Source: Planctomycetota bacterium
Lineage (GTDB): Bacteria; Planctomycetota; PLA2; JAEUHO01
Reading direction: 5' to 3'
Length of the DNA stretch: 64,000 nucleotides
Assembly (NCBI GenBank): GCA_965223505.1
Contig: CBDCWP010000030.1
Span: 244,860 to 308,859 of the forward strand
In this document: piece after piece, positions 37,253 to 38,839 of the stretch
Numbering within the stretch: the first letter of the stretch is position 1
How the letters are laid out: every line of letters starts with the position of its first letter
The notes under the pieces: model-generated
The model's database searches: none
The model's input: only the letters and a program-made list of their open reading frames with translations
Told to the model about the DNA's origin: nothing
Made by a program: the position numbers and the translations under genes

Positions 37253-37325
37253 GTAGGGGCAGCCCTTGTGGCTGCCCAACCCGGGACGCCAAGACACGCC
37301 GAATTGGGCGACCACAAGGGTCGCC
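37253..37325. repeat. REPIN interrupted by the IS110 element (remaining CCTAC at 38687-38691)
   Basis: GTAGGGGCAGCCCTTGTGGCTGCCCAA, a spacer, then TTGGGCGACCACAAGGGTCGCC followed by the IS and CCTAC. Confidence 0.9.
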
Positions 37326-37329
37326 GGTT

Positions 37330-37556
37330 TAGGGAATGGCAAGCCCTTTTCTGTCGGCCGTGCGTCCTTTCCGCGTCGCCAGGGTCGGATCCGTCCACTC
37401 GGGTTTTCGAGCTCGCCTATTCGGGCGGCGTCATGAGGGGGAGTCGGACGCGCCTCTCAATCGCCTACACGAGCTGATGCGCTCAGCGGCCCGCCGGAGT
37501 ACGCGCCCGTTGGTGTCCGATTCCTGGTTTCGCTTCCTCTCTCTCAGTGCGTTCGC
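37330..37556 (-). ncRNA. Putative bridge RNA/seekRNA in the IS 3' non-coding end
   Basis: Contains GTAGG...CGCC (matching target GTAGG-GG-CG) and AAACC...ATCC (matching donor junction AAACC-GG-AT), each pair flanking a hairpin. Transcription is not shown. Confidence 0.7.
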
Positions 37557-38603
37557 TCAGGCAGCCTGGCCTAGGCACCGACGCAGCGAGAACACCTCGC
37601 CACGCGAGAACATCACCCACACGCCCACCAGTAGCCGGCGTGCAAGCGCCATTCGAACCTTGTTGCGGTGCATGCGCCTGAGCATCGGCTGTGCCCACGC
37701 CTTCACCTCTGGGTCGAAGGCCAGCAACCGAACCGCCCATTGCCCCAGCACCCAACGCAACTCGGCGTTTCCGCGTTTGGTCATGCGGCCGTGGTGCGCT
37801 CGATCCGCCGAGGCCGAAACGCGTGGAACGACACCCCCATAGCTCGAGATCTGTCGAGCACCGCGGAAGCGGGTTGCGTCACCCAACTCAGCTTGAAGCG
37901 TCAGAGCCGTCTGGGCTCCCGCCTGTGGCAGATTCCGAACGATCCAGCCTGAGACTTCGTCCTGCTCGGCCAACTCGCGGATTCGAGCGGTGAGCTTCTC
38001 GATGCGCTCCTGCAGAGCCGCAACGACATCCACCAGCGACTGCAGCGCCAGATCCTGGTTCTCATCACCCAGTCGCTGCTCGCGAAGCCACTGGATCCCG
38101 CGCTTGGTGTACAGCTGCGTCACCGGCGCTCGCAGCAGGTACGCGTTGAGCATGCCGCGGATGTGCGCCAGCACGCTGGTTCGATGCTGAACGAGCTGAT
38201 GCCGAACCCGCAACACCTTGCGCTGGCCGAACTCGGCTTCGGTGGCGAAGTAGGTCAGTGCGTAGCGGTCCAGGTCGCCAAGGTACAGCCGGCGCGAGAT
38301 CTCCTGGGCGTCGCGTCGATCCGTCTTCTTGCCCTGCTTCTTCAGATCGAGCTTCGTGGCGTCCACCACAAGCATCTCCAAACCCGCTTCGCGGCAGGCC
38401 AGCACGAACCAGCGGTTGCAGCCCAACGCTTCCACCGCGAAGCGCCCGCCGCCGTAGGTGCCAAGAAACGCAACCAGCGCCGCGGCCGCCTTTCGATCCG
38501 GCAGGCGCCACCGCCGCTCCTCTTCGATCTCGCCCTTCGCATCACGGACGCAGATTTGGGCGACACTCTTGTGCAGGTCGATTCCGACGTGGTACGCAGT
38601 CAT
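37557..38603 (-). CDS. IS110-family DEDD recombinase/transposase
   Basis: 'VGIDLHK', 'AVEA', 'KTDRRDA' (DEDD) and Tnp domain 'RFRGARQISSYGGVVPRVSASA...TKRGN'. GAGGAAGGA precedes ATG 38603. Confidence 0.95.
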   Translation of the reverse strand: MTAYHVGIDLHKSVAQICVRDAKGEIEEERRWRLPDRKAAAALVAFLGTYGGGRFAVEALGCNRWFVLACREAGLEMLVVDATKLDLKKQGKKTDRRDAQEISRRLYLGDLDRYALTYFATEAEFGQRKVLRVRHQLVQHRTSVLAHIRGMLNAYLLRAPVTQLYTKRGIQWLREQRLGDENQDLALQSLVDVVAALQERIEKLTARIRELAEQDEVSGWIVRNLPQAGAQTALTLQAELGDATRFRGARQISSYGGVVPRVSASADRAHHGRMTKRGNAELRWVLGQWAVRLLAFDPEVKAWAQPMLRRMHRNKVRMALARRLLVGVWVMFSRGEVFSLRRCLGQAA

Positions 38604-38761
38604 GGGGTGGCAGTTCCTTCCTCGGCTGATGCCGTAAACACACTTGGCACGACCGAGGATCAGGGCTGCCACCCCCTATCCCATCCCCTACCTCCGCACC
38701 CGCGTTCACCGCCTCGCGGTCCGGGGTGTCGTGCACGATCACGTTCACGTGCCGATTCCCC

Positions 38762-38839
38762 GTAGGGGCAGCCCTTGTGGCTGCCCAACCCGTGACGCCA
38801 AGACACACGCCATTGGGCGACCACGAGGGTCGCCCCTAC
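38762..38839. repeat. Intact REPIN (inverted REP pair)
   Basis: GTAGGGGCAGCCCTTGTGGCTGCCCAA, a spacer, then TTGGGCGACCACGAGGGTCGCCCCTAC. The spacer is nearly identical to that at 37280-37303. Confidence 0.92.

Follow-up and report, generated by a model that had tools for sequence, protein, structure and literature searches.

The insertion sequence analyzed here is, with a probability of roughly 85%, a recently active IS1111-group element of the IS110 family, with a DEDD/serine recombinase that would be guided to a REP by an RNA of about 140 nt encoded in the 231-nt non-coding 3' end of the element. Guidance by an RNA of its own, which was absent from the original prediction of an IS110/IS1111 recombinase inserted into a GTAG REP, is most likely what explains the REP specificity. 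The element is located in a metagenome-assembled genome of the Planctomycetota (5.15 Mb, 44 contigs, 92.47% complete). The window, i.e. the whole stretch of 64,000 nt that was analyzed, corresponds to G000:C30:244860-308859. The element and its insertion site comprise the following features (window positions):

37253 to 37325, plus strand: interrupted REP doublet, consisting of an intact CAGC-type REP (37253-37277) and a CGAC-type REP (37306-37325) that is split by the insertion sequence
37324 to 37325, strand not applicable: core dinucleotide at the right junction, CC on the plus strand and GG in transposase orientation
37326 to 38684, minus strand: body of the insertion sequence, 1359 bp (1361 bp counting one GG core), with four full copies in the genome and flanks in common with intact REPs
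37328 to 37347, minus strand: right sub-terminal inverted repeat AGGGCTTGCCATTCCCTAAA, with the -35-like TTGCCA inside at 37337-37342
37557 to 38603, minus strand: transposase gene, 348 aa plus stop, with the DEDD residues D9, E58, D95 and D98 and the conserved serine S265
38662 to 38680, minus strand: left sub-terminal inverted repeat GATAGGGGGTGGCAGCCCT, which opens with a -10-like hexamer, part of a putative promoter at the circle junction
38685 to 38686, strand not applicable: core dinucleotide at the left junction; the restored REP keeps only one of the two core copies
38687 to 38691, minus strand: GTAGG head of the interrupted REP, parted from the remaining REP by the insertion sequence
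38762 to 38839, plus strand: adjoining intact REP doublet, which served as empty-site comparison

In transposase orientation, the left junction reads ...GGAG GTAGG GG ATGGGATAGGGGG (window 38691 down to 38672) and the right junction ...CCATTCCCTAAACC GG CGACCCTTGTGGTCGCCC (37339 down to 37306); on the minus strand, the window letters thus bear out both junctions as originally proposed. When the element is taken out together with one GG, the sequence GTAGGGGCGACCCTTGTGGTCGCCC results. It is one loop base off the neighboring intact REP at 38815-38839 (minus strand, GTAGGGGCGACCCTCGTGGTCGCCC), exactly the restoration that had been claimed for excision. The proposed absence of a target site duplication past the GG core also holds, with the GG alone being ambiguous at all four copies. 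The range 37326 to 38691 given earlier is correct at its start only: its end also covers one copy of the core and the flanking 5 nt, GTAGG, and the element ends at 38684. The sub-terminal TAGGG/CCCTA repeat is real and longer than had been noticed. It spans about 18 bp, with GATAGGGGGTGGCA-GCCCT (38662-38680) facing the reverse complement of AGGGCTTGCCATTCCCTAAA (37328-37347), and comprises approximately 15 matching positions, two mismatches and a 1-nt indel. Relatives of the element carry the same repeats. The non-coding ends measure 83 nt on the 5' side of the transposase gene and 231 nt on its 3' side.

To locate further copies, the 1366-bp stretch was used as a blastn query against its own genome. 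Four full-length copies were found, namely C44:25535-26900, C44:79593-80958, C34:164281-165646 and the window copy, three of them at 100% and one at 99.93% identity over 1366 bp. A stop-free open frame of 372 aa is present in each of the four. All have GTAGG GG on the left and GG CGAyCCwTGTGGTCGCCC on the right, i.e. they occupy the site GTAGG-GG-CGAyCC of the GTAG-headed REP in the same orientation. Upstream of GTAGG, each copy lies in unrelated DNA; the right-hand REP halves vary (CCCATG, ATCCTTG, CCCTTG), and the partner REPs vary in spacing and type. Since the flanks past the REP are unrelated, the copies represent four separate insertions and not segmental duplications. None of the mapped copies lies at an unrelated sequence or has other boundaries; together with the left junction of a fifth, rearranged remnant, which has the same REP position and orientation, they confirm the predicted site-specific insertion, a pattern well outside what chance would produce. 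The copy C44:79593-80958 has a single base change in its left sub-terminal repeat, GGAGG where the others have GGGGG. On its right, the flanking sequence is GGCGATCC, which has two mismatches to the encoded guide described below.

The remnant (C40:226622-227215, outside the window) was detected by blastn as two partial pieces. Its order is REP head GTAGGGGCGAC, positions 568-755 of the insertion sequence in forward direction, positions 403-1 reversed, and finally GTAGG at a left junction of the usual form. Compared with the full copies, the 403-nt piece has 3 mismatches and the 188-nt piece 1, so that the remnant is probably not an assembly chimera of them. An origin by guide-directed recombination at an internal pseudo-site was considered and rejected, as the joints are located at GAC and CGG microhomologies, off the core. 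A second, distant IS110-family transposase gene, whose product shares 26% identity with the one studied here, is found at C30:203722-204723, likewise outside the window.

The REP family that serves as target comprises 301 sites across the whole genome (at most 3 substitutions from four 25-mer variants). Two main types dominate, GTAGGGGCAGCCC... with 147 and GTAGGGGCGACCC... with 125 sites; they are mostly paired face to face as inverted doublets, and inverted pairs are also found in the window. Joining the flanks of the element yields a 13-mer that occurs intact elsewhere in the genome 92 times (exact matches, CGACCC type), in agreement with the earlier suggestion that the REPs supply many landing sites. 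These sites might in addition be safe ones, as was also suggested. Exact intact 13-mers of the other types number 130 (CAGCCC) and 4 (CGGCCC). All four insertions are located in the CGAC arm type, and the CAGCCC arm type is unused. As the CGAC type accounts for 96 of the 230 exact sites (92 intact plus 4 occupied), the chance of finding four of four insertions there is about 0.03 if sites are equivalent. A preference for the CGAC arm is thus suggestive, not firm; candidate target variants for a comparison of the arms are GTAGGGGCGACCC, GTAGGGGCAGCCC and GTAGGGGCGGCCC. A search for a cognate RAYT (Y1 transposase, PF01797) gave no match in the 92.47%-complete assembly and was positive in 6 of 14 control genomes.

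The presence of the same REP halves beside every copy could also mean that these halves belong to a mobile unit wider than 37326-38684 and that pre-existing REPs were never the target of an insertion. This is exceedingly improbable, because the joined halves form the 13-mer that is intact 92 times without the element (among about 301 REPs in all), because the right REP halves and the partner REPs differ between copies, and because relatives with the same ends have quite different flanks. Insertion into existing REPs is the reading adopted in the following.

Judged by its sequence, the 348-aa protein is a DEDD transposase of the IS110 family. Residues 6-155 match the N-terminal RuvC-like DEDD domain PF01548 (43.1 bits, cut-off 29 bits), and the C-terminal domain PF02371 scores 69.7 bits (cut-off 21.3 bits). 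The NCBIfam equivalog NF033542, 'IS110 family RNA-guided transposase', is matched with 181.5 bits (cut-off 140 bits) over profile positions 2-342 of 343. All 38 aligned homologues share D9, E58, D95, D98 and S265 without exception; the serine motif is GVVPRVSASA, so that S265 is followed by alanine and not by glycine. The layout of the element, with sub-terminal inverted repeats and a long non-coding end 3' of the gene, is that of the IS1111 group as described in PMC11187229 and PMC11208160. The repeats are in keeping with those that define the group (7-17 bp or more). The recombinase identity assigned earlier is thereby corroborated by both Pfam domains, NF033542 and IS1111-group anatomy.

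The closest protein among 5.8 billion is 79% identical, the best match outside the own genome among 40 related genomes has 53% identity, and 562 proteins among 8000 candidates scored reach E <= 1e-30. In a tblastn comparison against plasmids, the closest named elements were ISHvo10 (33.0% over 97% of the query) and ISPa25 (29.2% over 97%). The length of 348 aa falls in the 330-350 aa range of IS1111-group transposases.

For the analysis of the 3' end, 71 loci in species genomes and the best 80 of 166 loci from metagenomes were gathered as relatives. A conserved block was found by aligning the downstream ends of 17 relatives with clear sub-terminal repeats and of the present element. From a 16-row alignment of this block, two identical duplicates being left out, a two-domain structure was derived, on which the covariance model R1 was built. 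The 3' end most likely encodes a predicted guide RNA of about 140 nt with two loops, modeled as follows:

37379 to 37519, minus strand: predicted bridge/seek RNA of about 140 nt with two internal loops, starting 38 nt past the stop codon (model R1, 99.6 bits)
37485 to 37492, minus strand: target loop, 5' guide GGGCCGCU, predicted to pair with GGCGACCC on the top strand (core and right flank), apart from a single G-U wobble and a single A-C mismatch
37464 to 37468, minus strand: target loop, 3' guide GUAGG, the same as the 5 nt left of the core (5/5), which would pair with the bottom strand
37434 to 37441, minus strand: donor loop, candidate 5' guide CCCCCUCA, opposite the left end of the element GGATGGGA (5/8 here)
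37402 to 37406, minus strand: donor loop, 3' guide AAACC, the same as the last 5 nt of the right end of the element (5/5)

Of 96 related sources, 93 contain one full-length hit to model R1, always on the strand of the transposase gene. Where the transposase was also matched over its full length (85 sources), the distance from its stop codon to the start of the RNA ranges from 15 to 881 nt, with a median of 34. Paired cells amount to 93.1%, compared to 77.5% in shuffled and 31-42% in slid alignments, the alignment having been fitted to the model, which somewhat favors the structure. Compensatory changes on both sides are found in 19 of 23 pairs, and the observed values were attained in 0 of 500 shuffles. 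The single-sequence fold of the 3' end is no stabler than shuffles (z of 0.53 and 0.46), so that it is covariation that speaks for the structure. None of the described Rfam families fits: the three hits obtained (E 1.7-4.6) all fall far short of the respective gathering score.

The guides were assigned with element ends taken from the inverted repeats alone, independent of the RNA, and four loop segments were compared with four DNA segments. Guide reading by exact k-mer search had left ambiguous 6-7-mers and was given up for comparative alignment. Guides agree with their own flanks and ends better than in mismatched pairings. For the left flank, the agreement (of 5 positions) is 4.18 versus 1.54 among 38 elements and 3.94 versus 1.88 among 16 elements; for the right flank (of 8), 6.18 versus 3.40 and 4.69 versus 2.65; and for the right end of the element (of 5), 4.71 versus 3.12 and 4.94 versus 3.42, respectively. 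The signal of the left end (of 8) is weak, with 4.26 versus 4.02 and 4.94 versus 4.56. In the same order, the observed sums were attained by 0, 0, 0 and 4 of 2000 permutations for the 38 elements and by 0, 0, 0 and 65 of 5000 for the 16 elements, counts that overstate independence, as relatives share ancestry, even if the guide/flank pairs are still very diverse. In the 38-element test, a one-base shift of the right-flank register was permitted, and the permutations were given the same freedom. No convincing register was found for the 5' guide of the donor loop (5/8 here, and the weak signal among the 38 elements).

Within the window copy, GGGCCGCU and GGCGACCC match at 6 of 8 positions, or at 7 of 8 with G-U. 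Every occupied site mismatches the 5' target guide at one position, and the C44 copy with GGCGATCC does so at two. The right guide encodes GCGGCCC, which is one mismatch from both main REP arm types including the unused CAGCCC. The RNA as read therefore leaves the 4/4 arm preference unexplained. In the predicted RNA, the match to the top strand is located 5' of the match to the bottom strand, an order that is also described for IS1111-type seekRNAs (PMC11187229).

These imperfections bear on a different explanation, in which the recombinase would read the REP by protein-DNA contacts or hairpin shape and the conserved RNA-like 3' region would be no more than an end bound by protein or a leader with a regulatory role. 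The target is strongly palindromic, none of the four occupied sites is matched perfectly by the 5' target guide, and the exclusive use of CGAC arms does not follow from the RNA as read, all of which fits such recognition. It is nevertheless quite unlikely: loop segments and flanks change in concert among 38 relatives, which have unrelated targets that in many cases are not REP-like, the stems co-vary like those of a folded RNA, and published IS1111-group elements require a guide RNA (PMC11187229).

We therefore favor RNA guidance, with pairing between guide and target as in published relatives. In the target loop, GGGCCGCU would pair with the top strand of the core and right flank, GGCGACCC, and GUAGG with the bottom strand over the 5 nt that adjoin the core on its left. 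On the donor side, AAACC would fit the last 5 nt of the right end, and a less clear segment would face the left end. Through recombination at the GG core, the element would then come to lie between GTAGG and GGCGACCC, in one arm type of the REP doublet, without target duplication. By analogy with published relatives, excision would produce a circle with the expected junction ...CCCTAAACC-GG-ATGGGATAGGG, at which a promoter (TTGCCA, 17 nt, GATAGG) could drive transposase and RNA. The -10-like hexamer GATAGG is poor. Joined ends in relatives would give TTGACT, 17 nt, TATAGA, and a promoter scan of the integrated copy returned 0 sigma-70-like sites.

Five entries of sequencing-run data from two studies contain the stretch or part of it, all as Logan contigs and none of them on record as RNA. 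In the assembled contigs of the four runs that span both junctions, no circle junction or empty site was found, rare forms being beyond what contigs can show; other joints in these contigs are REP-to-REP and uninformative. Taken with the poor -10 hexamer of the junction, this would suit an element that is real in all its copies and now immobile, the site pattern stemming from old events or from duplicated REP-containing segments. Such a history is very improbable given three copies at 100% and one at 99.93% identity over 1366 bp, four open frames without stops, and flanks past the REP that are unrelated and point to separate insertions. Recent activity is thus retained for this element.

Relatives were found in Planctomycetota, Gemmatimonadota, Myxococcota, Krumholzibacteria and many metagenomes. 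In one of them (L092, 64% aa identity), GUAGG is kept, the site is GTAGG-GG-CATCGT, and the 5' target guide, i.e. the right-flank guide, matches at 8 of 8 positions. Another (L022, 53% identity, from a genome of the same family) is inserted in the GTAG-headed REP of its own genome, at another position and in the opposite orientation; the REP of that genome has 58 matches, compared to 0 for a reversed control. Several further relatives (L033-L039, L133, L162) sit mid-way in short G/C-rich palindromes, for example left ...AATGCCCCCC with right GGGGGCATT..., and, as a second example, left GTCCACCC and right GGGTGGAC. Targets able to form hairpins may be frequent in this clade. A broader proposal is put forward tentatively, at somewhat worse than even odds: the elements might constitute an undescribed, widespread IS1111-type RNA-guided subfamily with a compact 140-nt RNA whose two loops are symmetric, a conserved CGA following the 5-mer that forms each 3' guide. 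Its members might have been repeatedly retargeted between host REP positions, and the CGAC-only use observed here might be a natural read-out of position-specific mismatch tolerance.

Several characterized elements share features with the present one. That IS621 and other members of the IS110 family target REPs, as had been stated earlier, is backed by the literature (PMC11208160; PMC1525189). ISPa11, an IS1111-group element of Pseudomonas aeruginosa, likewise has a fixed REP position and sub-terminal inverted repeats (PMC11187229). Its long 3' non-coding region yields a transposase-bound seekRNA with the top-strand match 5' of the bottom-strand match (PMC11187229), the order also read in the predicted RNA of the present element. 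The likeness to ISPa11 is one of description and not of sequence; the host here is a Planctomycetota metagenome-assembled genome, the REP is a different one, and the serine is followed by alanine instead of glycine. IS621 (IS110 group, Escherichia coli) resembles the element in its DEDD/serine recombinase, 2-nt core and REP sites, and has a bridge RNA with target and donor loops (PMC11208160). Most natural IS621 sites are one base off the specificity of the target loop (PMC11208160), and a similar offset is seen here. In contrast, the IS621 RNA is located in the long left end and the sub-terminal repeats comprise only 2-3 bp, while the predicted RNA described here is located in the right end and the repeats span about 18 bp.

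ISPpu9 and ISPpu10 of Pseudomonas putida are IS110-family elements with REP-specific insertion as found here (PMC1525189; PMC12288879), and ISPpu10 is among six elements with a manually inspected bridge RNA (PMC11208160). Both are likened by description only, and host phylum and REP differ. ISHvo10 and ISPa25, closest named elements by sequence although at low identity, are grouped with IS1111 relatives in PMC11187229; their hosts and targets are unlike those of the present element, the target of ISPa25 being attC. ISHvo10 has long non-coding regions on both sides (PMC11187229), whereas the long end is only 3' here.

REP targeting (2003, 2006) and bridge/seek RNAs (2024) have already been published, and the picture of the family is unchanged. 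What is added is an insertion sequence with clean boundaries, probably both active and RNA-guided, from a phylum that has received little study; in this element the target, the donor ends and the predicted guides are readable. The approximately 90 relatives with different guides are a possible comparative set for the guide-target rules of IS1111-type elements, and they are also candidate programmable recombinases. For its own genome, the element accounts for four repeat-induced features, with the REP family as landing pad. The main interest lies in the large uncharacterized clade and in the natural pattern of mismatches and arm preference.
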